Part shown: positions 1-21,057 of the stretch, piece after piece | Position numbering within the stretch: position 1 is the first letter of the stretch | Layout of the letters: each line of letters opens with the position of its first letter | Virus record (IMG/VR): IMGVR_UViG_2565956633_000002 | DNA from: a virus | Taxonomy: Duplodnaviria > Heunggongvirae > Uroviricota > Caudoviricetes | Length of the DNA stretch: 23,481 nt | Strand: one strand, 5' to 3' | Notes under the pieces: model-generated | The model's input: only the letters and a program-made list of their open reading frames with translations | Database searches by the model: none | What the model was told of the DNA's origin: nothing | Made by a program: the position numbers and the translations under genes

Positions 1-530
1 CATATCAGGAACTTGTTCGCACCTTCCCTAATGTAGTCGGCGCTTGCAACGTTGTTATATTCCGTTGCGAAGCAGCATAACAACGTCAGAACGTGCTCTG
101 TCGTTATTTCGCTCCAGTTGATGTTGAAAAATTCATCGCCTTTTTTGTCATGTTCGGAATCGAAGATGCTTTGGTGAAGGATGTATTTGCCGGATTCCTT
201 GCGCGGTAACTTGATCGCTTTCTGGCGTTCCAATTCCTTGTAAATCTGCATTGCTTCAATCAGTACCGGTCTGCCGTTCATGAAGGGATCACGCAACCTT
301 ACACGCTGGCCAACTCGACCGGTAATAAAGCTGTTTTCCTCTTCCACCAGCACGATAAAACCCTTTTCCTCTTTTTCTCGCAATTCGCGCAGCAGCTGGA
401 GTTCCATATCGCGGCGGCGTTCAGGGTAGCTGGTCCGCTCAGCCATTATCAGCTCATTGTTGATCCATGCAGCAGTCATTGACGCCGGTTTGCCGACGCT
501 CATTGAAACAACGCATATTTTCTTATCCAT
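1..530 (-). CDS. hypothetical protein, N-terminal 177 codons only; ORF runs off the window start
   Basis: Reverse-strand ATG at 530-528, then an uninterrupted frame to position 1 (MDKKICVVSMSVGKPASMTAAW...REGANKFLI), checked codon by codon. It lies directly downstream of ref, where mat sits in P1, but I do not recognise the protein. Confidence 0.55.
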   Translation of the reverse strand, partial: MDKKICVVSMSVGKPASMTAAWINNELIMAERTSYPERRRDMELQLLRELREKEEKGFIVLVEEENSFITGRVGQRVRLRDPFMNGRPVLIEAMQIYKELERQKAIKLPRKESGKYILHQSIFDSEHDKKGDEFFNINWSEITTEHVLTLLCCFATEYNNVASADYIREGANKFLI

Positions 531-718
531 AGCGCCCCTACAAAAAAGAAAAGCCACCAGCGGCGGCTTAGCAATACAACTGAAGGTAGCGCCCGGTACT
601 CAGACTGTGCCGTCCATGGAATATTTGAAAAGGGATCCATCCGTACCGGGCGTGTGATGATTCTGACTCAAGTCACTTGTCAGTTGTCAATCATTTAAGA
701 TTAAAAATAATATATTTA

Positions 719-1279
719 TTAGTGCATGATGTTTGCCATTTCATAGGCGTCAGCCAGCAACTCCATCTCTGACTTGTTCAACAAGGTGAATTCTTTCTTG
801 CCTCCTACCACGCCATCGGCATGAACAGGGACCAGCCAGGGGTATTTTTCTCTTACTTCAGCCGGTGCTGCATGCTGGTGGTGCCATCTGCAAAGGGGCA
901 ATTGCTTTTTGTGACAACCCGGCGCGGTACGACCGGAGATATGGTGCAGAGACACCTCTTCAGATATTACTCCATGCATGTAGCAGGCAATGCAGGGGAG
1001 AGTGCCAAGAGCATTGGCGATGGTCCGTTCCTCCGCCGTCGGTGTTCGCCCCTTCAAGCCACGAGATTTTATTTTTACCGCACTTTTCCGCGTTTTGCTG
1101 GCTGGTGGGCGCTCTTTCTGTTTAGCGATACGGCGGTCGATAGAATCCCGCATTTTCTGATATTGCGATTCTCGCCAGGCGGGGTCAGCCAACTTTTCCC
1201 GTTGCCGAGCGATCGCTCGTTCTCTGGCTGCCTTCTGCCACTCGCGGCGCTGTTCAAGTTTTTGTTCGATTGTTTTCAT
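719..1279 (-). CDS. ref: Ref, recombination enhancement function (HNH-family endonuclease), 186 aa
   Basis: Translation MKTIEQKLEQRREWQKAARERAIARQREKLADPAWRESQ...CYMHGVISEEVSLHH...CRWHH...EMANIMH matches P1 Ref as I remember it, with a basic N-terminal tail and an HNH Cys/His core. The 212-codon ORF in the track begins at a TTG; the first ATG (1279-1277) gives the 186-aa product. Confidence 0.85.
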   Translation of the reverse strand: MKTIEQKLEQRREWQKAARERAIARQREKLADPAWRESQYQKMRDSIDRRIAKQKERPPASKTRKSAVKIKSRGLKGRTPTAEERTIANALGTLPCIACYMHGVISEEVSLHHISGRTAPGCHKKQLPLCRWHHQHAAPAEVREKYPWLVPVHADGVVGGKKEFTLLNKSEMELLADAYEMANIMH

Positions 1280-1284
1280 ATGGC

Positions 1285-1310
1285 AAAAAAAAGGCGGCCT
1301 AATGGCCGCC
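1285..1310 (-). terminator. intrinsic terminator-like hairpin plus U8 in the ref leader, directly abutting the ref ATG
   Basis: Minus-strand RNA reads GGCGGCC-AUUA-GGCCGCC followed by UUUUUUUU, then GCCAU and the AUG. It is a 7-bp GC stem with a 4-nt loop, and there is no Shine-Dalgarno between the U-run and the start. Confidence 0.55.
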
Positions 1311-1364
1311 AATGATGTCAAGGAGTGAAGTAATGGCAACGTCTTCGTAGTTGACAAAAACTGC

Positions 1365-1394
1365 GGCTAAATTATAGCAATCAATTAGAGCAAT
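1365..1394 (-). promoter_or_regulatory. two overlapping C1 repressor operators upstream of ref (Op2-like), overlapping a TATAAT box
   Basis: Minus strand reads ATTGCTCTAATTGATTGCTATAATTTAG. This matches the asymmetric P1 C1 operator consensus ATTGCTCTAATAAATTT twice, both imperfectly. Confidence 0.6.
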
Positions 1395-4921: not shown

Positions 4922-6040
4922 TTATTCAGCTGCCACCGGTTTTAACAAGCCAGCATCGAGCAGTTTACGCGTCAACCACTGCTGGCCTTTACCCGTTAAT
5001 TGAGGCGTCAACCGTATCTGGTAGCCATCTTCATCATCCAGCACCACTTCTTTCACCGTGAAATACCCCGCGTTGATGTACTGCTGGAACGGCACATTTT
5101 TACGTCCACCGGACGCTATCAGGATGCCGTTCTCCCGTAACCAGACAAACAGCGCGTTTTGCTTAAGTCCAACAACCTTTGCAAAATTCCCAATCAGGAT
5201 CCCTTTAGCTACTGATACCCGGTCGGCAAAATCGACTTTAGGAGCGGCGGCCACCAGCTGCTGATTTAGCTGGTGGGCTTTCTGTTCCAGAAGTTGCTTT
5301 TGTTCAGCCAGTTCGGCAGCCAGGCGTAGGGCTTCAGGAAGCGTCTGGGGGATTGCGATCGGTTGCTGTTCTTTTTGTCGGAAGTAGCTGTCTTCCAGTT
5401 TTTCAAAGAATGCCCATGCCTGATCGGTTTCGAGCATTTTAGCGTGGCGGGCTGCGCCGCGTTCTGTCCAGAGGGTGAGTGAGCGAACATTGCGAGCAAT
5501 TTTTACAGAGTAGTTTAAAGCTACTCTGTGCTTCAACTCGCGCAATGATTCTCCTTCAACTTTGAAAAAGTGCTTCCCTTCAACAAAGCGTACTTTGTTC
5601 TCATGATGATTTTGGCGAATACGGATTGTTTCTGTCCCATACCCTCTAGCAAGAGTCTCGGTTGTCACTACACGCACTCCCTGCCATTCCAGAACGGGAA
5701 TTTCATCAGACTGATTCTGAACAACCACCAGCTCCGATTCCTGAACTGAAGGTGCATGAATTTTTTCTGATTTAACGTTAGTTGCTTTCATTCTGTGTGC
5801 CTCCTTGCGTGCTTCGGCTGCGACGGTTGCGTAATTCAGATGACCCTGTTCGAGCAGGTATTCGCGAATATCAGACAGCAGGATACGGTGAACCGCGTTC
5901 TTGTCCTTTCTCCGGTAAAGTTGTTTAGTGATCATGAAGTAGTTGGCTATAACACTGGGAATATCCCTGGTGCTGATACAGGCAGTGTGCTGTTCAATTG
6001 CCTCGATCATCTCTTCACGGGTGACTAATGACGTTCTCAT
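4922..6040 (-). CDS. ant: antirepressor Ant1 (372 aa) with in-frame internal start for Ant2 (ATG at 5790, 289 aa); ORF6N/Bro-N-like and KilA-C-like regions
   Basis: 372-codon ORF translationally coupled to the upstream 73-codon ORF (ATGA overlap at 6037-6040). A perfect internal Shine-Dalgarno AAGGAGG sits 8 nt before Met84. The predicted 41 kDa and 32 kDa products fit P1 Ant1/Ant2. The C-terminal region looks like a KilA-C antirepressor domain. Confidence 0.7.
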   Translation of the reverse strand: MRTSLVTREEMIEAIEQHTACISTRDIPSVIANYFMITKQLYRRKDKNAVHRILLSDIREYLLEQGHLNYATVAAEARKEAHRMKATNVKSEKIHAPSVQESELVVVQNQSDEIPVLEWQGVRVVTTETLARGYGTETIRIRQNHHENKVRFVEGKHFFKVEGESLRELKHRVALNYSVKIARNVRSLTLWTERGAARHAKMLETDQAWAFFEKLEDSYFRQKEQQPIAIPQTLPEALRLAAELAEQKQLLEQKAHQLNQQLVAAAPKVDFADRVSVAKGILIGNFAKVVGLKQNALFVWLRENGILIASGGRKNVPFQQYINAGYFTVKEVVLDDEDGYQIRLTPQLTGKGQQWLTRKLLDAGLLKPVAAE

Positions 6041-6258
6041 AGCCCCTCCTGAACAGAAGCGTTAACAGGGAGGCACCAGTAACTGAGAGAATTGCGTGAA
6101 TCAGTGGAAAAACGGGCAGAGAAAATACATGGGGCGTCAGGAAGCTGAGAGCGGGCCTCATCTTCTGTTGGTGCAATAACGAAGTGATAGTGACGTTTTT
6201 GGCAGGAGTAAAAGCGCCAGATAAATTCAGGATGAGTTGGGGTAGGGATAGTAGCCAT
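6037..6258 (-). CDS. icd: Icd-like protein, 73 aa, translationally coupled to ant
   Basis: ATG at 6258 is preceded by Shine-Dalgarno AAGGAGG then a 7-nt spacer. Product is MATIPTPTHPEFIWRFYSCQKRHYHFVIAPTEDEARSQLP... The 73-aa size and the icd-ant coupling mirror P1 immI. I do not remember the P1 Icd sequence, so the identity is structural only. Confidence 0.55.
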   Translation of the reverse strand: MATIPTPTHPEFIWRFYSCQKRHYHFVIAPTEDEARSQLPDAPCIFSARFSTDSRNSLSYWCLPVNASVQEGL

Positions 6259-6423
6259 ATTGGCAGCCTCCTTAGACGTTGGTATGTAACCACCGCAGAA
6301 GAGACCAATCTTGCTGGCGGTGGACTGTACGGAGTTGGCCTTACTGGCGTCCAAGGTAACCAGCCTACCCGAAGGTAGCCCCATACAGCCCACCATTGTA
6401 GAGGTGTGCGTGTACGCCGATAC

Positions 6424-6447
6424 AAAAAAAAGACGCGAGCGGCGTCT
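6424..6447 (-). terminator. rho-independent terminator, minus strand
   Basis: Minus RNA reads AGACGC-CGCTC-GCGTCT followed by U8 (plus-strand A-run at 6424-6431). Confidence 0.55.
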
Positions 6448-6570
6448 GTATCGCCTTAGACTTAAGCGGGAGGCCAATCCCGGCACCCGTTTTAATGAGG
6501 TGCCTGATAAGCATAAACCGAAAATGCCTCAAGGCGCAAGAGGTCAGGTTCAATGTAACATCGGTAGCTA
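6448..6570 (-). ncRNA. candidate c4-like antisense regulatory RNA (boundaries approximate)
   Basis: This is the transcribed region between a C1-operator promoter and the terminator. It contains AUUGGCCUCC, which is complementary to the icd ribosome-binding site GGAGGCUGCCAAU, and a GUCUAAGG copy also present at that site. The arrangement follows the P1 c4-icd-ant paradigm. Confidence 0.3.
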
Positions 6571-11935: not shown

Positions 11936-13498
11936 ATGAAAATGACAAGTATTCAACAACGTGCAGAGCTTCATCGTCAAATCTGGCAAATTGCTAACGA
12001 TGTCAGGGGTTCGGTCGATGGATGGGATTTTAAGCAATACGTTCTGGGCGCACTTTTCTACCGTTTTATCAGCGAAAATTTTTCCAGCTATATTGAAGCC
12101 GGTGATGACAGCATCTGTTATGCGAAACTGGATGACAGCGTAATTACTGATGACATTAAAGACGATGCCATCAAAACCAAAGGCTACTTCATCTACCCAA
12201 GTCAGCTTTTCTGCAACGTAGCTGCGAAAGCAAATACCAATGACAGACTGAACGCAGATTTAAACAGCATCTTCGTTGCTATCGAAAGCTCTGCTTACGG
12301 TTACCCTTCAGAAGCTGACATCAAAGGTTTGTTTGCTGATTTCGATACCACCAGTAACCGCCTGGGTAACACCGTTAAAGATAAAAATGCCCGCCTGGCT
12401 GCGGTTCTGAAAGGGGTTGAAGGGTTAAAACTTGGTGACTTCAACGAACATCAGATTGACCTGTTCGGTGATGCCTATGAGTTCCTGATTTCTAACTATG
12501 CGGCAAATGCCGGTAAGTCAGGCGGTGAGTTCTTTACACCGCAGCACGTCTCTAAGCTGATTGCACAACTGGCAATGCACGGCCAGACCCACGTTAACAA
12601 AATCTACGACCCGGCAGCAGGTTCCGGTTCGCTGTTGTTGCAGGCTAAAAAACAGTTTGATGACCATATCATCGAAGAAGGCTTTTTTGGTCAGGAGATC
12701 AACCATACGACCTATAACCTGGCGCGTATGAACATGTTTTTGCACAACATCAACTACGACAAGTTTGATATCAAGCTGGGTAATACACTGACTGAGCCGC
12801 ACTTCAGAGATGAAAAACCGTTTGATGCCATCGTTTCTAACCCGCCGTATTCGGTGAAATGGATTGGCAGCGATGACCCGACGCTGATTAACGATGAACG
12901 TTTTGCCCCGGCTGGCGTTCTGGCCCCCAAATCCAAAGCTGACTTTGCGTTTGTATTACATGCGCTGAACTATCTTTCTGCCAAAGGTCGTGCTGCGATT
13001 GTCTGCTTCCCGGGCATTTTTTACCGTGGCGGCGCGGAGCAGAAAATCCGTCAGTATCTGGTTGACAATAACTATGTCGAAACCGTGATTTCACTGGCAC
13101 CGAACCTGTTCTTTGGCACCACCATTGCCGTAAATATTCTGGTGCTGTCTAAACATAAAACGGATACCAAAGTTCAGTTTATTGACGCCAGCGAACTGTT
13201 CAAAAAAGAGACTAACAACAACATCCTGACCGATGCCCATATCGAAAAAATTATGCAGGTATTTTCCAGCAAGGAAGATGTTGCCCATCTGGCAAAATCT
13301 GTCGCGTTTGAGGCCGTTGTCGCGAATGACTATAACCTGTCAGTGAGCAGCTATGTAGAAGTGAAAGATAACCGCGAAACTATCGATATTGCTGAGCTAA
13401 ATGCTGAGCTGAAAACCACGGTCAGCAAAATCGACCAGTTGCGTAAAGATATTGATGCGATTGTGGCTGAAATTGAAGGCTGCGAGGTGCAGAAATGA
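11936..13498 (+). CDS. hsdM: Type I restriction-modification methyltransferase subunit HsdM, Type IC (EcoR124 family), 520 aa
   Basis: N6-adenine methyltransferase motifs are present: [10 protein letters not shown] (AdoMet binding) and VSNPPYS (motif IV). The 520-aa length and N-terminus [25 protein letters not shown] fit EcoR124-type HsdM. Confidence 0.93.
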
Positions 13499-14706
13499 GC
13501 GAGTTGAGTTATCTGGAAAAATTGCTGGATGGGGTTGAAGTTGAGTGGTTGCCATTGGGGGAAATAACCAAATATGAACAGCCAACAAAGTATTTGGTAA
13601 AAGCAAAAGATTATCACGACACATATACCATACCGGTTCTTACTGCCGGAAAAACATTTATTCTTGGATACACAAATGAGACTCATGGTATTTATCAGGC
13701 ATCAAAGGCACCTGTAATAATTTTTGATGATTTCACCACCGCTAATAAATGGGTGGATTTTGACTTTAAGGCAAAATCATCGGCCATGAAAATGGTTACA
13801 TCATGTGATGATAATAAAACCTTACTGAAATATGTTTACTATTGGCTCAATACATTACCAAGTGAATTCGCAGAGGGAGACCATAAACGCCAATGGATTA
13901 GTAATTATTCTCAAAAAAAAATCCCAATCCCCTGCCCGGATAATCCGGAAAAATCCCTTGCCATCCAGTCTGAAATCGTTCGGATTCTGGATAAATTTAC
14001 TGCACTTACCGCTGAGCTTACCGCTGAGCTTAACATGCGTAAAAAACAGTACAACTATTATCGCGACCAGTTGTTGAGTTTTAAAGAGGGTGAGGTTGAG
14101 TGGAAGACTTTGGAGGAGGTGCTAGTAGATAAATTTTGGATTATGCCCGCAACTCCGAAGTTTGATGACAATGGTGAAATTCCATATGTCACTTCAAAGA
14201 ATATTAGTGGTGGGAACATCGATTTTGAAAGAGTTAAGCATATTTCCCGGGACGATTTTTTGAGCATCTCCAAAAATAGACCGATCTTGAAAGGTGACTT
14301 TCTTATAAGCATGATTGGTACTATTGGTGAGATTGCTCGAGTAAAATGTCTCGATCCTGATTTTTACGGTCAAAACATGTACCTAATCAGGTTGAATGAG
14401 GAATTACTTCACCCTAGATATTTTCTGCATTTCTTCGACTCACCAAGAATGAAATTTTACTTTAAGTCAGTAAAAAACAATTCAGGGCAAGGTTATCTTA
14501 AAGCAAATAACATTGATGGTTTATCTATTCCTTTACCATCGATTGATGAGCAACAAAAAATTGCCTTTATCCTCGATAAGTTCGACACCCTGACCAACTC
14601 CATCACCGAAGGTCTCCCGCGTGAAATCGAGTTGCGCCAGAAACAATACGAGTACTACCGTGATTTACTGTTCAGTTTCCCGAAACCTGAAACTGTCAGT
14701 AATTAA
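13495..14706 (+). CDS. hsdS: Type I specificity subunit HsdS, Type IC, 403 aa, two target-recognition domains
   Basis: ATGA overlap with hsdM. The central conserved region carries the TAEL-TAEL repeat typical of Type IC HsdS, and there are duplicated conserved motifs (QKQYEYYRD / KKQYNYYRD). Confidence 0.9.
14005..14028 (+). repeat. tandem 12-bp repeat (CTTACCGCTGAG x2) encoding TAEL-TAEL in the hsdS central region
   Basis: Exact tandem duplication read directly from the sequence. In the EcoR124I / EcoR124II paradigm, two versus three copies of this repeat change the spacer length of the recognition site. Confidence 0.85.
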
Positions 14707-14828
14707 TTGACCATTGCTACCGACCGGGCCACCTTAACACCCGGTCAGTATATAGGCTATTTTTTTACACGCTGGAAGTCACCATTAACACCCTTCCGGC
14801 CCTTGCCAGACGGCACAAAGGATGCGCT

Positions 14829-17800
14829 ATGACTCATCAGACACACACCATTGCTGAATCCAATAACTTTATCGTTCTTGATAAGTACATCAAAGCTGAG
14901 CAAACAGGCGACAGCTATCAGAGTGAATCGGACCTGGAACGGGAACTGATTCAGGACCTGCGAAATCAGGGCTATGAATTTATACCCGTAAAATCACAGT
15001 CGGCGATGCTGGCCAACGTTCGGGAACAGCTTCAGAACCTCAATGGTGTGGTGTTTAATGACAGCGAATGGCGGCGTTTCACGGAGCAGTATCTGGACAA
15101 CCCGAGTGATGGCATTCTGGATAAGACCCGTAAAATCCATATCGACTATATTTGCGACTTTATTTTTGATGACGAGCGTCTTGAGAACATCTATTTGATA
15201 GATAAAAAGAATCTCATGCGCAATAAGGTGCAGATTATCCAGCAGTTTGAACAGACGGGTTCTCATGCTAACCGTTATGACGTCACGATCCTGGTTAATG
15301 GTTTACCGCTGGTGCAAATCGAACTAAAAAAACGCGGGGTGGCGATTCGTGAGGCTTTCAACCAGATACATCGTTACAGTAAAGAGAGTTTTAACAGCGA
15401 AAATTCCCTGTTTAAGTATCTGCAACTGTTTGTCATTTCTAACGGCACCGATACCCGTTATTTTGCCAACACGACAAAGCGCGATAAAAACAGTTTTGAC
15501 TTCACCATGAATTGGGCGAAATCAGACAACACGCTGATTAAAGACCTCAAAGACTTTACCGCTACCTTTTTCCAGAAACATACTCTGCTGAATGTTCTGG
15601 TGAACTACAGCGTTTTTGACAGTAGTCAGACGCTACTGGTGATGCGACCGTACCAGATTGCCGCCACCGAACGAATCTTATGGAAAATCAACAGCTCCTA
15701 TAAAGCGAAAAACTGGTCTAATCCCGAAAGCGGTGGCTTTATCTGGCACACTACCGGTTCTGGTAAAACACTGACCAGCTTTAAAGCCGCGCGTCTGGCA
15801 ACAGAACTGGACTTTATTGATAAAGTCTTCTTCGTGGTCGACAGGAAAGACCTCGATTACCAGACCATGAAGGAATACCAGCGTTTTTCGCCAGACAGCG
15901 TCAACGGCTCGGAAAATACCGCAGGTCTTAAACGAAATCTGGATAAGGACGATAACAAAATTATCGTCACCACTATTCAGAAACTTAATAACCTGATGAA
16001 AGCAGAAAGCGACCTGCCTGTATACAATCAGCAAGTGGTGTTTATATTTGATGAATGCCACCGCAGCCAGTTTGGAGAAGCGCAGAAAAACCTGAAGAAG
16101 AAATTCAAACGCTATTATCAGTTTGGTTTTACCGGCACACCTATTTTCCCGGAAAACGCTTTAGGCTCAGAAACGACCGCCAGCGTATTTGGCCGTGAAT
16201 TGCATTCGTATGTGATTACCGATGCGATTCGAGATGAAAAAGTGCTTAAATTCAAGGTGGACTACAACGATGTGCGGCCACAGTTTAAGTCTTTAGAGAC
16301 AGAAACCGACGAGAAAAAACTGAGTGCGGCTGAAAATCAGCAGGCGTTTCTTCATCCCATGCGTATACAGGAAATTACGCAATATATTCTGAATAACTTC
16401 CGCCAGAAGACCCACCGTACTTTCCCAGGTTCCAAAGGCTTTAATGCCATGCTGGCAGTGAGTAGCGTGGATGCCGCGAAAGCCTATTACGCGACGTTTA
16501 AACGGTTACAAGAGGAAGCAGCTAATAAATCGGCTACCTATAAACCGCTGCGTGTTGCGACAATCTTCTCCTTTGCCGCCAATGAAGAACAAAATGCCAT
16601 TGGTGAAATTTCCGATGAAACTTTTGATACCAGCGCAATGGACAGCAGTGCTAAAGAGTTTCTGGACGCTGCAATTCGTGAATATAACAGCCATTTTAAA
16701 ACTAACTTTAGCACCGACAGTAACGGTTTTCAGAACTACTATCGTGATTTAGCCCAGCGGGTTAAAAATCAGGATATCGATCTGCTAATTGTCGTGGGGA
16801 TGTTTTTAACCGGCTTCGATGCTCCAACATTGAACACGCTATTCGTCGATAAAAACTTGCGTTTTCACGGCCTGATGCAGGCATTTTCCCGCACCAACCG
16901 TATTTATGATGCAACTAAAACCTTCGGTAATATCGTCACTTTCCGGGATCTGGAACGCTCAACTATTGATGCCATAACGCTGTTTGGTGACAAAAACACC
17001 AAAAATGTGGTGTTAGAAAAGAGTTATACAGAGTATATGGAAGGCTTTACTGATGCTGCTACAGGTGAAGCTAAACGCGGCTTCATGACAGTAGTTTCAG
17101 AACTGGAACAACGGTTCCCTGACCCTGCCAGTATTGAAAGTGAAAAAGAGAAGAAAGACTTCGTTAAACTGTTTGGCGAATACCTGCGTGCCGAGAACAT
17201 CCTGCAAAACTATGATGAATTTGCCACGCTAAAAGCCCTGCAACAAATCGATCTTAGCGATCCTGTTGCGGTAGAAAAATTCAAAGCAGAACATTATGTG
17301 GATGATGAAAAGTTCGCTGAATTGCAAACAATTCGTCTCCCTGCTGATCGCAAGATTCAGGATTATCGTTCTGCCTATAACGATATTCGCGACTGGCAGC
17401 GCCGTGAGAAAGAAGCTGAGAAAAAAGAGAAATCAACCACTGACTGGGATGACGTAGTTTTTGAGGTCGATTTGCTGAAGTCTCAGGAAATAAACCTGGA
17501 TTATATCCTTGGACTGATTTTCGAACACAACAGACAAAATAAAGGCAAGGGCGAAATGATCGAAGAGGTCAAACGCTTAATTCGTTCAAGCCTGGGGAAC
17601 CGAGCGAAAGAGGGCCTGGTGGTCGATTTTATTCAGCAAACGAACCTGGATGATTTACCAGATAAAGCCAGTATCATTGAGGCATTCTTTACGTTTGCTC
17701 AACGCGAACAGCAACGTGAAGCAGAAGCATTGATAAAAGAAGAAAATCTCAATGAAGAAGCAGCAAAACGCTATATTCGCACGTCTTTAAAACGCGAATA

Positions 17801-17945
17801 CGCCACCGAAAATGGCACAGAATTAAACGAAACATTACCAAAACTTAGTCCATTGAATCCGCAATATAAAACGAAAAAACAGGCAGTTTTCCAGAAAATC
17901 GTCTCGTTTATTGAGAAGTTTAAAGGCGTAGGCGGAAAAATATAG
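14829..17945 (+). CDS. hsdR: Type I restriction endonuclease subunit HsdR, Type IC, 1038 aa
   Basis: Superfamily 2 helicase motifs are present (Walker A TGSGKT, DEAH-box FDECHRSQ). The 1038-aa length matches EcoR124I HsdR as I recall it. Shine-Dalgarno AAGGA. Confidence 0.93.
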
Positions 17946-18024: not shown

Positions 18025-18111
18025 TTACCCATGCGCGACGATGCCGCCAAAAGTGATAGAGAACAGCCAGAAATAGATCGCGGTCATAATGATTTTGAAT
18101 ACCGTGTTCAT
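18025..18111 (-). CDS. small hydrophobic peptide, 28 aa, predicted single transmembrane helix
   Basis: ATG at 18111 is preceded by Shine-Dalgarno CAGGAG with a 7-nt spacer. Product is MNTVFKIIMTAIYFWLFSITFGGIVAHG. A C1-type operator lies about 85 bp upstream. It is convergent with hsdR. Confidence 0.4.
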   Translation of the reverse strand: MNTVFKIIMTAIYFWLFSITFGGIVAHG

Positions 18112-18140
18112 ATCTTCAGCTCCTGTGATTGATTGGATAT

Positions 18141-18172
18141 ATGCCGCGCCCCTTGCGGCATGTTTTTATTTT
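18141..18172 (+). terminator. rho-independent terminator, plus strand
   Basis: ATGCCGC-GCCCCTT-GCGGCAT followed by GTTTTTATTTT. Confidence 0.55.
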
Positions 18173-18195
18173 CACTTTCTCTGTTTTAAAAAACA

Positions 18196-18212
18196 AGATT
18201 TATTAGAGCAGC
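18196..18212 (-). promoter_or_regulatory. C1 operator
   Basis: Minus strand reads CTGCTCTAATAAATCTT, 14/17 to consensus. Confidence 0.55.
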
Positions 18213-18718
18213 TATTGTTGATGGAGAAGCACGTTTTCATACTCCCTGACCATTAACGTAAGTACGCCGTGACTCCTGAAAACACGCGCCACTTCAATCT
18301 TATCTTCCAGCGCGAACGCAATTTTACTTAGACCAATTTTCTTAAGGAGATCAATCTTTGCTGGACCGTCATTTCTGTCATCGGTGGCAGGACGCATAGA
18401 TAGCAAAGGCTCAGCCCCGTTTGTTACGTACTTCCGCAGCCAGGCTCGTGTTTTATCCCTTGCGATCTCACAGCGCCCGGTTACAAACCAGACCGTGTAA
18501 ACGTTAAATAACTGGCGCACCATATCAATAACTGGAGTGATGGGAGTATCGGTGTCACAGGCAAGGTTAAACTCGTTCCAGTGCTCTGTTAATGCACCTT
18601 TGCCAGGTGGTGGAAGTAAATGCAACCTGTCTTCCGTTGCCTCTGATATCGTCCCATCAATATCTACTATGACGATGTACGGACGTTCCTGGTGTGCGTG
18701 TTTATTGAAAATACTCAA
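18212..18718 (-). CDS. HAD-superfamily phosphatase-like protein, 168 aa (TTG start)
   Basis: HAD motif I DxDGT is present near the N-terminus (IVIVDIDGTISE), and there is a later acidic motif. Shine-Dalgarno GGAGGG precedes the TTG start. Confidence 0.65.
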   Translation of the reverse strand: MSIFNKHAHQERPYIVIVDIDGTISEATEDRLHLLPPPGKGALTEHWNEFNLACDTDTPITPVIDMVRQLFNVYTVWFVTGRCEIARDKTRAWLRKYVTNGAEPLLSMRPATDDRNDGPAKIDLLKKIGLSKIAFALEDKIEVARVFRSHGVLTLMVREYENVLLHQQ

Positions 18719-18737: not shown

Positions 18738-18770
18738 AAAAAAAATGCTGGTAGGCGCACTCAACCAGCA
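18738..18770 (-). terminator. rho-independent terminator, minus strand, between the 420-codon gene and the HAD-like gene
   Basis: Minus RNA reads UGCUGGU, an 11-nt loop, ACCAGCA, then U8, followed immediately by the Shine-Dalgarno of the next gene. Confidence 0.55.
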
Positions 18771-18791
18771 TTAAAAGTGACACTGTAACTA

Positions 18792-20054
18792 TCAGCGAAC
18801 GTAAATAGTGCCGCCGTTCTCTTTTTCCCATGCATCGCTACGTGCATAGCAAACATCGAGAAGTCTTCTTGCCGCTGTTTCCTCTAAACCCAATTCGACA
18901 ACCAACTGCTCATGACGGCGGGTAACCACATCAAACAGGGTATGCAGCCCTTTAGCTGCCAGATCATCAATAAATTCCGGTTCGAACGGCAGCTCTGCCT
19001 CTGCCAACATAACCTCTTGCGCCCACTCAACTCGACGGACCAGTTCCGGGCGGCGGCTTTCCATCTCTTTACAGATCAATTCATGGAAGAACTCTACCCA
19101 ACCTTCCGGCTGGAACTCGCGGAAAATGGCCAACGGCTGGAAGTTTGGCATCAACCATTCGTTGATCCGGATATCAATGGCATAGCCCATGTCGCAGCAG
19201 AACTGATAAGCAAAGTCCAGCTTAGAAACGATATAAGGACGCTCGTTATTGAACTCTTTAGGCGATGAGATCCCATAAGCCAGGAGGCGCGGGAAGAAGG
19301 AGATTTGCCCTAACGTCGGATGAAGTTTGCTTGCAGGGAAACGGCGCTCAGTAATGCCATACATTTCCTTCTTGAGCGTCGCAAATTTGGCATTCTCATT
19401 AACCAGCGCGGTAACCTCTGCTTTTTTATTAGCAAATGCCACGCGCGCCTCGCTTGCATCTTTAATAGTTTTTTTGAGCTGTTGGTTAAGGTCGGCGACC
19501 TGCTTACGCAGTTCCTGTCGCTCGCTTTTAGCTTTGTTATAGCGTTTCTCAAGGTTAAAAGGATCAAGTTTCATGATCTCTTTATATTGAGATTTTAGCG
19601 TTGAAATCTGTGAGTTCCGCAGTTCAACCATCGCGGTCATTTCATTGAGTTTTGTTTCCAGCTCAATGCTTATACGTTCGGCATTATCAGCACGCTGGTT
19701 GGCGTCATGCGTCGCATCGTCGATCGCGTCCTGTTGCTGGCGTTTCAAATGTTCAATTTGCAGCTGAAGCTCTTCAATTTCTTTACCCTTCAGACCAAGA
19801 TCCAACTGCATATTTTCAGCTGCATCTACCAGGGAGTTATGGCTATCAGCTTCTGCGTTATAAACATCAATAAGCTGTGCGTGAAGCATCTCCGCTGACT
19901 GAACCGCATTATCAAAAAAACGCGCTGTGAGGTCATCACAACTAACGCGGCGTTGCGCGGCCCGGATGTTCTGGATAATGGCCGGGATACCGGCATTCAG
20001 GACGTCAGGGATAGATACATTTTCGATTGATTGGTTTTGTGCTGAAGTGCTCAT
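18792..20054 (-). CDS. hypothetical protein, 420 aa, with a long N-terminal coiled-coil region and an unrecognised C-terminal domain
   Basis: Long ORF with a heptad-rich, charged N-terminal half (LKGKEIEELQLQIEHLKRQQQDAIDD...) and a C-terminal globular part. Its start lies 1 nt after the stop of the upstream 72-codon ORF (TGAAATG). Confidence 0.7.
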   Translation of the reverse strand: MSTSAQNQSIENVSIPDVLNAGIPAIIQNIRAAQRRVSCDDLTARFFDNAVQSAEMLHAQLIDVYNAEADSHNSLVDAAENMQLDLGLKGKEIEELQLQIEHLKRQQQDAIDDATHDANQRADNAERISIELETKLNEMTAMVELRNSQISTLKSQYKEIMKLDPFNLEKRYNKAKSERQELRKQVADLNQQLKKTIKDASEARVAFANKKAEVTALVNENAKFATLKKEMYGITERRFPASKLHPTLGQISFFPRLLAYGISSPKEFNNERPYIVSKLDFAYQFCCDMGYAIDIRINEWLMPNFQPLAIFREFQPEGWVEFFHELICKEMESRRPELVRRVEWAQEVMLAEAELPFEPEFIDDLAAKGLHTLFDVVTRRHEQLVVELGLEETAARRLLDVCYARSDAWEKENGGTIYVR

Positions 20055-20055
20055 T

Positions 20056-20274
20056 TCAAAGTTCCGTATTAGCTTGTGCTTCGGTCATTTTTCCTAAGTA
20101 TGAAGGTGGAAGGACTACGCAATTTGTATCCAGTCCCTCACCTATGGCAGCCTGTAAAATTCTGGCTAAGGTGAGTCTCTTGTTGCGATACCTGGTGATG
20201 ACATGCCTGATACCGCCGGTCGGCGTAACAAAGGCGATCAGCCAGTAGTGATATTTCCGTCGGAATGGCCACAT
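20056..20274 (-). CDS. hypothetical basic protein, 72 aa, first gene of a two-gene operon
   Basis: ATG at 20274 with Shine-Dalgarno AAGGTG and a 4-nt spacer. A C1 operator lies 15 bp upstream. Product is MWPFRRKYHYWLIAFVTPTGGIRHVITRYRNKRL... Confidence 0.5.
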   Translation of the reverse strand: MWPFRRKYHYWLIAFVTPTGGIRHVITRYRNKRLTLARILQAAIGEGLDTNCVVLPPSYLGKMTEAQANTEL

Positions 20275-20288
20275 AGTGCACCTTATAG

Positions 20289-20354
20289 ATTGCTCTAATA
20301 AAAAACGTGATGAGTGTACATCACGTTTTAAAAATATGGAATTATTAGAGCAAT
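20289..20354. promoter_or_regulatory. pair of divergently oriented C1 operators flanking a hairpin
   Basis: ATTGCTCTAATAAAAAA on the plus strand at 20289-20305. Hairpin CGTGATG-AGTGTA-CATCACG at 20306-20325, with an A-run before and a T-run after. Minus-strand ATTGCTCTAATAATTCC at 20338-20354. Confidence 0.6.
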
Positions 20355-20355
20355 A

Positions 20356-21057
20356 TTATTCTGATTCTCGCTCAAAAAATGAGCTGATAAGGGGAAGCCA
20401 ATCCTCTGACACTTCGCGAGGTCGCGGTTTGCCGTGGAAAAAGATTATTCGGCAGTCTTTTGGTAATGCCCCATTCCCCCTGGAGTAACGCGCGCTCGCA
20501 TATTTCGAACCAGGTTCCACAACATCGGCCTTGTAACTTACAAACCATCCCGGATACAGATCCTGAAATGCTGGTGTATCATCACCCATAACCTTCCGCA
20601 AAAACCCCTGCTCACCCCAGCATTCAGTAGTAACACAACGAGCAATCCAACCTTCCGGATCTTGCCAGAATGCACTCCAGATATGCGCTTTTACACTATT
20701 TGGTATCCACAGGGCACCGCTGCCACGATATTGTGGATGGTAAAAATCCCTAAGCATGGTGAAGCTGGTTGGTGGATTCTCTAGGATTGGGCGTATATCA
20801 CCGGCAATAACCGTGTCCAAATCCAGATAGAACAGATCATCGGTTATATCCGGTCGGAACAACTCGATTTTCGCCCACCAGCCACGGCACTTTTGCCACT
20901 GGTTGATCAATGGGACAACTTTGACGCCAGGTACATGTAAACGCTTCAGGTCTGTCAGGCAAATAATTTCATAGCCTTTTGGCAGTTGATTAACCAGCCA
21001 CTGCACATCGGAAGCGTTATAGTCACCACCAGAGCGAAGAACTAAAGCAATCTTCAT
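20356..21057 (-). CDS. hypothetical protein, 233 aa, with a DxD motif (possible nucleotide-sugar transferase fold)
   Basis: ATGA start/stop overlap with the upstream phosphatase gene. Contains a DLDTV motif. The family is not recognised. Confidence 0.65.

Follow-up and report, generated by a model that had tools for sequence, protein, structure and literature searches.

Bacterial geneticists have long relied on bacteriophage P1 as a tool, and its phage-plasmid relatives are vehicles for the spread of resistance genes. For one P1 gene, ref, an 'attenuator-antiterminator' is named in the title of a 1988 report (Windle, Laufer and Hays, J Bacteriol 1988;170:4881, title as cited in PMC4713147). 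Here we describe a 23,481-nucleotide (nt) stretch of P1-family DNA (IMG/VR virus record IMGVR_UViG_2565956633_000002; the window, meaning the whole stretch analyzed) in which a hairpin and a run of U stand shortly 5' of the start codons of four minus-strand genes, ref, mat, pap and pmgR. An earlier note on this DNA had taken the pattern to imply regulated read-through, or U-rich, S1-dependent translation initiation, rather than simple operon punctuation. The reading we favor, and judge reasonably probable, is that the four are real intrinsic terminators kept by selection, those of ref and mat being leader attenuators and those of pap and pmgR being punctuation.

The ref element of the window belongs to the same gene as the element of the 1988 title, and with its C1-operated promoter and terminator-like leader it shows no difference in kind; the layout matches that title, and the ref attenuator is therefore already known. 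What appears to be new for ref, from sequence comparison, is its conservation with a different stem in the clade of phage JK004, together with an alternative pairing in both clades. Both the ref and mat leaders resemble the trp and pyrBI attenuators and riboswitch platforms in running from promoter through leader and intrinsic terminator to gene, and a segment of the ref leader can hold the terminator's 5' arm, but they differ from these systems in that no conserved leader peptide (in mat) and no known aptamer was found; in particular, the mat leader has no conserved open reading frame (ORF) and no Rfam aptamer that could serve as a sensor. With the lambda N/nut and Q systems and HK022 put, the arrangement shares a structured RNA right after a phage promoter, followed by a terminator before the essential mat; the likeness is one of analogy, since no nut or put signature was seen and no specific scan for one was run. 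Late transcription in P1 is known to depend on the activator Lpa and host SspA, not on an antiterminator, and because only two such leaders occur P1-wide, there is no genome-wide antitermination regime in this phage. The c4-icd-ant leader of the P1/P7 immI region provides a precedent within the family for regulated elongation in a leader, there through C4 antisense RNA and premature termination, but it is another locus with an antisense-RNA mechanism, and it showed no relation in sequence to the leaders of ref and mat. The pap and pmgR hairpins, lying 20-30 nt past the pmgS and pmgQ stops, are like ordinary operon-end terminators, although the pmgR hairpin differs in its position between inverted C1 operators, which is unusual and leaves room for repressor influence on termination.

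Four predicted terminators in the window

By megablast, the window is P1-family phage-plasmid DNA along its whole length, with 97% identity to phage vB_EcoM-673R5, 98.6% to SJ46 and 95.7% to P1 over 3339-23391; the ref region is 97% identical to that of P1. Gene names and the labels of promoters and operators were carried over by alignment from the annotated P1 record AF234172, with the addition of Pfam matches. Since viral contigs searched with the window's Ref and PmgS yielded only relatives at least 93% identical, which were of no use for covariation, divergent relatives were obtained by re-seeding the searches with proteins of JK004, D6 and Xenorhabdus. JK004 is a Cronobacter phage, and the comparison clade for ref consists of JK004 and three contigs (L167-L169).

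All four hairpins with their U-runs were found where the earlier note had placed them, on the minus strand, as are the genes behind them. Folded alone, they have free energies (ΔG; all values in kcal/mol) of -11 to -15, and the elements end 5-25 nt 5' of ref, mat, pap and pmgR. The earlier note would have given up its view had the hairpins been thermodynamically weak, and on folding none of the four was. The tract 3' of the stem is U8 at ref, UUCUUUUUU at mat, U8 at pap, and, past paired U, U6 at pmgR, and each site combines a stable G+C-rich hairpin and an adjoining U-rich tract with pairing kept in evolution; the pap and mat stems differ in sequence in JK004 and D6. In a strict census (hairpin of at most 30 nt, ΔG of -10 or below, at least six U in eight), the window contained 8 terminators, compared with 0.93 ± 0.87 and a maximum of 3 in 60 first-order Markov simulations, so that compact terminators are about 8-fold over the null; two broader scans for terminator-like sites gave 22 and 23, with 11.3 and 12.6 expected. 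These folding energies and the strict census argue that the hairpins are neither weak nor the product of chance.

The pattern itself proved to be local. When the complete P1 genome OP279344.1 was scanned, these four were the only canonical terminators within 30 nt 5' of a co-directional gene, and only at ref and mat was such a gene-abutting terminator preceded, at 84-109 nt, by a promoter element. The scan thus confines hairpins before start codons to four sites, and we rejected the idea of a genome-wide design principle. Because the genome is compact, with intergenic gaps of 73-247 nt, a short distance to the following start codon carries no information in itself; the informative criterion is the position of the promoter, that is, whether or not it lies upstream of the hairpin. 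The features discussed below are collected in Table 1.

Table 1. Genes and predicted control elements around the four hairpins, in window coordinates.
Feature	Position	Strand	Basis
mat (start 530, continues past window edge)	1..530	-	transfer from P1 record AF234172
mat AUG (530..528) and Shine-Dalgarno sequence AGGGG (539..535)	528..539	-	frame comparison, annotation of other records
mat leader terminator, 8-base-pair (bp) hairpin 569..551, U-run 550..542	542..569	-	folding, conservation
mat leader structured domain	591..651	-	RNAalifold and pair counts
mat promoter region Pmat/LPmat	660..690	-	P1 annotation; boxes extracted from sequence
ref, RecA-dependent nuclease, 186 amino acids	1279..719	-	Pfam RecA_dep_nuc, E = 7.6e-50
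ref leader terminator (attenuator), 7-bp all-G-C stem, tetraloop, U8	1285..1310	-	folding, conservation
Candidate ref antiterminator, 3' half (UUGACA 1321..1316, GCGGC 1309..1305)	1305..1321	-	leader folding
Candidate ref antiterminator, 5' half (GCCGC 1367..1363, UGUCAA 1356..1351)	1351..1367	-	leader folding
P2ref -10 TATAAT	1371..1376	-	directly after operator; likewise in JK004 and L167-L169
C1 operator Oref ATTGCTCTAATTGATTG, between -35 and -10 of P2ref	1378..1394	-	P1 annotation by alignment; kept in JK004 clade
pap	18718..18212	-	Pfam HAD_PNKP
Terminator of pmgR-pmgS unit, 19 nt 5' of pap UUG	18738..18772	-	folding, conservation
pmgS	20054..18792	-	transfer from AF234172
pmgR (72 codons)	20274..20056	-	transfer from AF234172
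pmgR control region: Op86a, hairpin and U-run, inverted Op86b	20289..20354	-	P1 annotation, folding
pmgQ	21057..20356	-	transfer from AF234172

The ref and mat leaders

At ref and mat the promoter lies 5' of the terminator, and each gene would be expressed only by polymerase reading through. For ref, transcription from P2ref is predicted to start near 1364, and the leader runs to a hairpin (GGCGGCC-AUUA-GGCCGCC, 1310..1293, seven G-C pairs; ΔG -15.0 alone and -16.2 in context, z = -3.1), followed by U8 (1292..1285), GCCAU and the AUG (1279..1277). The 78 P1-family loci with coverage of the ref leader share operator, TATAAT, leader, 7-bp G-C hairpin and a start lacking a Shine-Dalgarno sequence. 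Among these loci the stem is essentially kept, with a few differing in the last one or two bases of the 3' arm, the loop varies (ATTA, ATCA, TAAA), the U-run is 7-10 U long, and a Shine-Dalgarno sequence occurs in no variant. The JK004 clade, with a Ref 65% identical to that of the window, likewise keeps the operator, TATAAT, a leader of ~60 nt, a 7-bp hairpin and U8, the hairpin here being GACGGUC-uucg-GACCGUC. Its ref starts at the shared position with ATG or GTG and without a clear Shine-Dalgarno sequence (at most a weak GGGA in L169), and no promoter 3' of the hairpin was visible on reading the sequences of this clade. When pairs were counted over the P1 and JK004 clades, 100% of alignment cells in the stem were paired, compared with at most 71% in slid controls, and two pairs were compensatory. 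What the earlier note had seen at ref, a start codon behind hairpin and U-run with no Shine-Dalgarno sequence, recurs in the P1-family variants and in JK004. In D6, where Ref is 55% identical and stands in a different context, ref has a Shine-Dalgarno sequence (AAGAGG) and no hairpin before it. An N-terminal extension of Ref from an in-frame TTG at 1357 was considered and rejected, since the lengths of U-run and spacer vary and the frame is lost.

When the ref leader was folded as it stands ahead of synthesis of the terminator's 3' arm, the energy was -17.3, with the 5' arm held upstream in the candidate antiterminator, the 3' half of which overlaps a conserved CUCCYUGAC motif and a second predicted promoter, P1ref. 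In the JK004 clade the pairing partner of ACUGUCA is UGACGGU, the terminator's 5' arm itself, at about -9 to -10, and modeled folds thus suggest that an alternative antiterminator pairing is available in the ref leader of both clades. We propose the following sequence of events. The C1-repressed P2ref would give rise to a leader of ~85 nt, in which pairing of GCCGC...UGUCAA with UUGACA...GCGGC would sequester the 5' arm of the terminator, making antiterminator and terminator alternatives. Polymerase terminating at the hairpin would leave only a short leader RNA, and read-through would yield an mRNA in which the AUG lies 5 nt past the U8 tract with no Shine-Dalgarno sequence. The same terminator would also stop read-through from upstream cre and c8. 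The net effect would be to insulate the nuclease Ref and hold its expression low, a design that fits a C1-controlled, lytic-cycle-induced gene whose product stresses the host (PMC4713147). Regulated read-through, as the earlier note proposed it, thus gains support at ref from a conserved C1-controlled promoter 5' of the hairpin and from antiterminator pairing in both clades.

Two further observations concern the surroundings of ref. The pyrimidine-rich motif CUCC(Y)UGAC is anti-Shine-Dalgarno-like (window 1322-1330, minus strand; ~1151-1162 in L165), and in both the P1 and the JK004 clade it stands, conserved, 0-8 nt 5' of the ref terminator, its UUGAC part lying in the candidate antiterminator. 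On the plus strand at 1426-1529, in the gap from c8 to ref, a promoter-like site (TTTTCA, 17 nt and TG-extended TATACT at 1426-1454) and, ~50 nt beyond, a strong terminator (1501-1521, ΔG -15.6) followed by T8 would make up a unit of ~65 nt that converges with c8. This stretch has no annotation in the P1 record and only below-threshold Rfam matches, such as SorX at 22.6 bits; it could encode a small RNA missing from the annotation or just be a bidirectional c8 terminator.

The mat promoter consists of a -35 TTGACA (690..685), a late-promoter -22 box AAGTGACTT (678..670) and a -10 CAGAAT (665..660), with a predicted start near 653. JK004 has the same layout (TTGACG, AAGTGACTT, CACAAT), 3' of the upstream gene's own terminator; given that separate terminator before the promoter, the mat leader hairpin is not merely a ref terminator. 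In P1, JK004 and D6 the promoter elements are ~90-110 nt 5' of the hairpin, which in the window is AAGCCGCC-GCU-GGUGGCUU (ΔG -11.0) followed by the U-rich tract given above. A terminator stands in the same place in JK004 (L327, 663-681), in D6 (L328, 446-464), whose Mat is 33% identical, in four Xenorhabdus contigs and in new metagenome clades. It carries no annotation in the records examined. The whole order of promoter, ~100-nt leader, G+C-rich hairpin, U-run, Shine-Dalgarno sequence and mat recurs in the P1, JK004, D6 and Xenorhabdus lineages as well as in the metagenome clades, and the hairpin before mat (552-568), which the earlier note had ranked as the weaker example, is instead the most deeply conserved of the four, being present in four lineages.

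Between promoter and terminator the mat leader contains a structured domain. Its closing helix of 9 bp joins GCCCGGUAC (651..643) to GUACCGGGC (599..591), and the inner hairpin AUGGA/UCCAU (640..636 with 620..616) holds CUUUUCAAA in its loop; GGACGGCACA is invariant. In P1-type leaders (the window, JK004 and L368-L371), 98% of cells were paired and 3 of the 9 closing-helix pairs covaried (RNAalifold). A covariance model of the D6 superclade matched 16 leaders with 14 distinct sequences, and in the alignment fitted to that model, which leans toward the model's structure, 12 of 28 pairs were compensatory, a count reached in 0 of 500 shuffles, slid controls giving at most 7; a MAFFT alignment of the D6 and Xenorhabdus mat leaders was of too poor quality and was left unused. 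No Rfam family reached its gathering score for either the mat or the ref leader, all matches in 480-1560 being below threshold. The mat transcripts, from LPmat and Pmat, would accordingly open with a structured domain of ~60 nt, followed by a variable linker, the terminator, a Shine-Dalgarno sequence and the AUG, and comparative sequence analysis suggests that the domain belongs to a newly recognized structured leader RNA ending in a terminator. As PMC10695390 counts mat as one of the known essential P1 genes, polymerase must pass this terminator. The recurrence of promoter, structured leader, terminator and Shine-Dalgarno sequence in four lineages is the part of the read-through proposal that stands at mat.

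The position of the mat start codon bears directly on the leader. In the P1 record AF234172, Mat begins at an ATG just past the promoter and its frame runs on across the hairpin, so that leader and hairpin are translated over what we consider 37 codons too many (528-640 in the window, minus strand; 2716-2826 in AF234172). The window is one G shorter than P1 in a G-run, which puts P1's upstream ATG out of frame with the ATG at 530. Among 75 loci the offset between the two ATGs was 0 in 33, 2 in 36 and 1 in 6, the upstream ATG thus being out of frame in 42, and the short form of Mat (beginning MDKKICVV) is the one annotated in JK004, D6 and OP279344.1. Since the frame from the upstream ATG is not kept among relatives, this frame comparison indicates that the true start is at 530..528 and that the annotated start in P1 is probably wrong. 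A leader peptide in the mat leader was rejected as well, because the upstream ORF shifts frame among relatives and ends before the hairpin in JK004.

The pap and pmgR hairpins and other features

The hairpin 5' of pap (the HAD-like gene of the earlier note) starts 20 nt past the pmgS stop. It extends from 18772 to 18744, with 9 bp, an 11-nt loop and a ΔG of -11.0, and its T-run of eight (18745..18738) contributes its first two T to the stem. The family consensus is an 11-bp stem with a ΔG of -17.6 in P1; in JK004 the stem is another one, with U8 after it. The contig L247, which is without pap, keeps the hairpin, and L248-L250, other relatives lacking pap, have terminator-like elements after pmgS. 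No promoter for pap is annotated in the P1 record and none is evident in the sequence; a late promoter was considered at a conserved motif past pmgS, AGTGTCACT, and rejected, as it has three mismatches to the -22 consensus A(A/T)GT(G/T)ACTT and no usable -10. The gene itself has a strong Shine-Dalgarno sequence (GAGGAGG) and a conserved UUG start at 18718. Because the hairpin follows the pmgS stop, is kept in the pap-less L247, and precedes a gene with a strong Shine-Dalgarno sequence, we regard it as operon punctuation, and its persistence where pap is missing tells against the regulated read-through that had been suggested for this site.

Three observations were made alongside. Relative to the consensus, the pap hairpin of the window has one G-C pair replaced by a U.U mismatch, both sides having changed, which takes the stem from 11 to 9 bp and from -17.6 to -11.0. 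Right after the pmgS stop is a 13-nt near-palindrome, GTTACAGTGTCAC (18777-18789, minus strand), which does not match the -22 box and is kept in all clades examined (P1, JK004 and L247-L251) despite diverged flanks. Within the first 45 codons of pmgS (19920-19948, minus strand) there is a terminator-like hairpin on the sense strand, with a ΔG of -10.1 and U7, and P1 has it too.

The pmgR hairpin (20329..20302, 11 bp) stands between Op86a (20354..20338) and the inverted Op86b (20289..20305, plus strand), 5' of an AUG at 20274, and the DNA of its U-run belongs to Op86b. Its ΔG is -11.1 for the inner 9 bp and -26.9 with the flanking inverted C1 operators (z = -6.7). Across clades including JK004 and L247-L251, 96% pairing, two compensatory pairs and three stem variants were found, and operator and hairpin are always 17 nt apart. 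A promoter, PpmgR, is predicted with a -35 TTGCTC (20353..20348) inside Op86a and a -10 TAAAAC (20330..20325) at the 5' foot of the hairpin; the -10 is poor, being TGAAGC in JK004. As its start would fall in the hairpin loop, near 20318, PpmgR transcripts would escape termination. For regulated read-through at pmgR, then, evidence of selection on the hairpin is favorable, and the promoter of the P1 record, starting inside the hairpin, is not. The hairpin is probably the end of the pmgN-pmgQ unit followed by a promoter restart, and operator-bound C1 may strengthen termination there in lysogens. The gene behind it is essential for head completion (PMC9024508). In our proposal both hairpins would close a transcription unit, the one after pmgS ending pmgR-pmgS with pap behind it, and the one before pmgR ending pmgN-pmgQ.

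Elsewhere in the window, the only Rfam matches at the gathering score were a C4 RNA (6313-6400, 75.9 bits) and an isrK-like RNA (6426-6503, 60.8 bits). They belong to an immI-like module (4922-6503, minus strand) between c1 and pacB, where P1 has none, which also includes a 372-amino-acid gene that is Ant/Roi-like according to the annotation of neighboring records; the isrK-like RNA carries a terminator-like hairpin and U8 at 6447..6431. At 11936-17945 (plus strand) three co-directional ORFs of 520, 403 and 1038 amino acids replace the humD-to-pmgT region of P1. Their counterpart in the closest phage record, ON470615.2, is annotated as the type I restriction-modification genes hsdM-hsdS-hsdR, and according to the P1 record the flanks resemble sequences beside plasmid hsd loci. 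At the position of P1 pmgT is a hydrophobic 28-codon ORF, MNTVFKIIMTAIYFWLFSITFGGIVAHG (18025-18111, minus strand), with the Shine-Dalgarno sequence AGGAG, 3' of a pmgT-type C1 operator (~18195-18210). The hairpin that precedes it (18139-18163) is a canonical terminator on the opposite strand only.

Competing explanations and significance

To our knowledge, the transcript architecture of P1 has never been mapped at nucleotide resolution. The searchable literature, including PMC8201110, the delta-hfq preprint and PMC10695390, contained no transcript-end data at these P1 loci. Our reading is built on sequence, folding, conservation, covariation and promoter positions, from which we infer termination, read-through and the regulatory logic, and this weighs against it, as do several of the results. 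The covariation of the ref and pmgR hairpins amounts essentially to one deep split, between P1 and the JK004 clade, with few independent events. The D6-superclade alignment has the lean toward its model already described, and the D6-clade model gives P1-type mat leaders only 12-14 bits, along a stretch made up chiefly of linker and terminator; the P1-type and D6-type leaders are thus of unproven homology, with only the architecture common to them. In addition, the P1 record predicts P1ref (TTGCCA, 16 nt, TG-n-CATCAT), with its -10 CATCAT at 1317..1312 on the minus strand, a TG extension and a start near 1305, in the 5' arm of the ref hairpin, and because its transcripts would start within the hairpin, ref in P1 itself might not need read-through.

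This last point leads to the view that all four hairpins are plain punctuation with re-initiation, downstream promoters at or after the hairpins giving transcripts without the full terminator. The predicted starts of P1ref and of PpmgR, the latter with its constant 17-nt spacing from operator to -10, would agree with it, and pap fits pure punctuation. We nevertheless think it unlikely for the set as a whole. The JK004 clade does not keep the P1ref hexamers, yet it keeps the hairpin and the C1-controlled promoter upstream; the mat promoter is well 5' of its hairpin, nothing promoter-like was seen by eye in the 10-25 nt from U-run to AUG, and in JK004 the gene upstream of mat ends in its own terminator before that promoter; and the -10 of PpmgR lacks the conserved final T in both the window and JK004. 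A different alternative accepts the ref and mat terminators as strong by default and has them yield only once the phage is in its lytic or late phase, to a phage or host factor or, at mat, to the leader RNA itself, in a riboswitch-like or put-like manner. We hold this to be possible but rather doubtful. The 1988 title does name an antiterminator, the mat leader is built like an aptamer domain joined to a terminator expression platform and covaries strongly, an essential gene lies behind a canonical terminator, CUCCYUGAC is kept close to the ref hairpin in both clades, and the invariant GGACGGC of the mat leader could, by its sequence, pair with the terminator's 5' arm GCCGCC with one A bulged. 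Against this, no factor, ligand or nut/put-like signature was identified, nut and put not having been scanned for specifically, no Rfam match was obtained, the minimum-energy folds of the mat leader contained no antiterminator competing with the terminator, which also counts against our own reading, and constitutive partial read-through is the simpler account of the same sequence data. With similar reserve we suggest, as a tentative extension, that the ~110-nt mat leader represents an undescribed class of cis-regulatory RNA in P1/D6-like phage-plasmids, made up of a three-stem domain, a variable linker and an intrinsic terminator, with the domain gating the terminator and thereby late-phase transcription of mat. 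Such a domain would respond to a late-phase signal, be it a metabolite, a small RNA or a protein (for example Mat or Lpa), or would itself modify RNA polymerase, and one factor could also serve the adjacent ref attenuator.

It is also conceivable, though quite improbable, that the two promoter-to-terminator units are small-RNA genes, of ~85 nt at ref and ~110 nt at mat, and that expression of the genes behind them is a by-product of leaky termination. Both leaders are laid out like Hfq-type RNAs, in which a single-stranded linker joins a structured domain at the 5' end to a terminator with U-run, the mat linker varies freely, as seed-free regions do, and the weak Rfam matches on the ref leader are all to small-RNA families (suhB/mmgR at 22.9 bits, rseX at 23.8 bits). 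Those matches are below gathering scores and apparently driven by the terminator, however, no target complementarity was found, none having been sought, and the unit is always directly 5' of mat in four lineages, which argues for regulation in cis. AU- and U-rich enhancers act via ribosomal protein S1, and the U-run of ref might mainly be an enhancer of this kind in place of a Shine-Dalgarno sequence, the hairpin being incidental. Starts without a Shine-Dalgarno sequence in both clades, with U7-10 lying 5-13 nt 5' of the start codon, would suit this explanation, to which we attach little probability: the adjoining hairpin is kept by compensatory change and would be superfluous for a simple S1 site, and mat, pap and pmgR have normal Shine-Dalgarno sequences. 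For these three genes initiation independent of that sequence is accordingly unneeded, and of the S1-dependent initiation raised in the earlier note, U-rich, S1-assisted initiation at ref is the part that remains plausible from the sequences; it is compatible with attenuation and probably a complement to it, not a substitute.

On the reading we favor, with attenuators in the ref and mat leaders and punctuation before pap and pmgR, a special explanation is needed for only two of the four cases in which a hairpin precedes a start codon. The ref attenuator of 1988 would be a conserved device and not a peculiarity of P1, and the probable misannotation of the mat start hides a conserved structured leader RNA that extends from Escherichia to Xenorhabdus. 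A mat leader that acts conditionally would amount to a new phage regulatory RNA and give a direct handle on the timing of P1 late functions; if it is constitutive, expression of mat would be set by a fixed partial termination.

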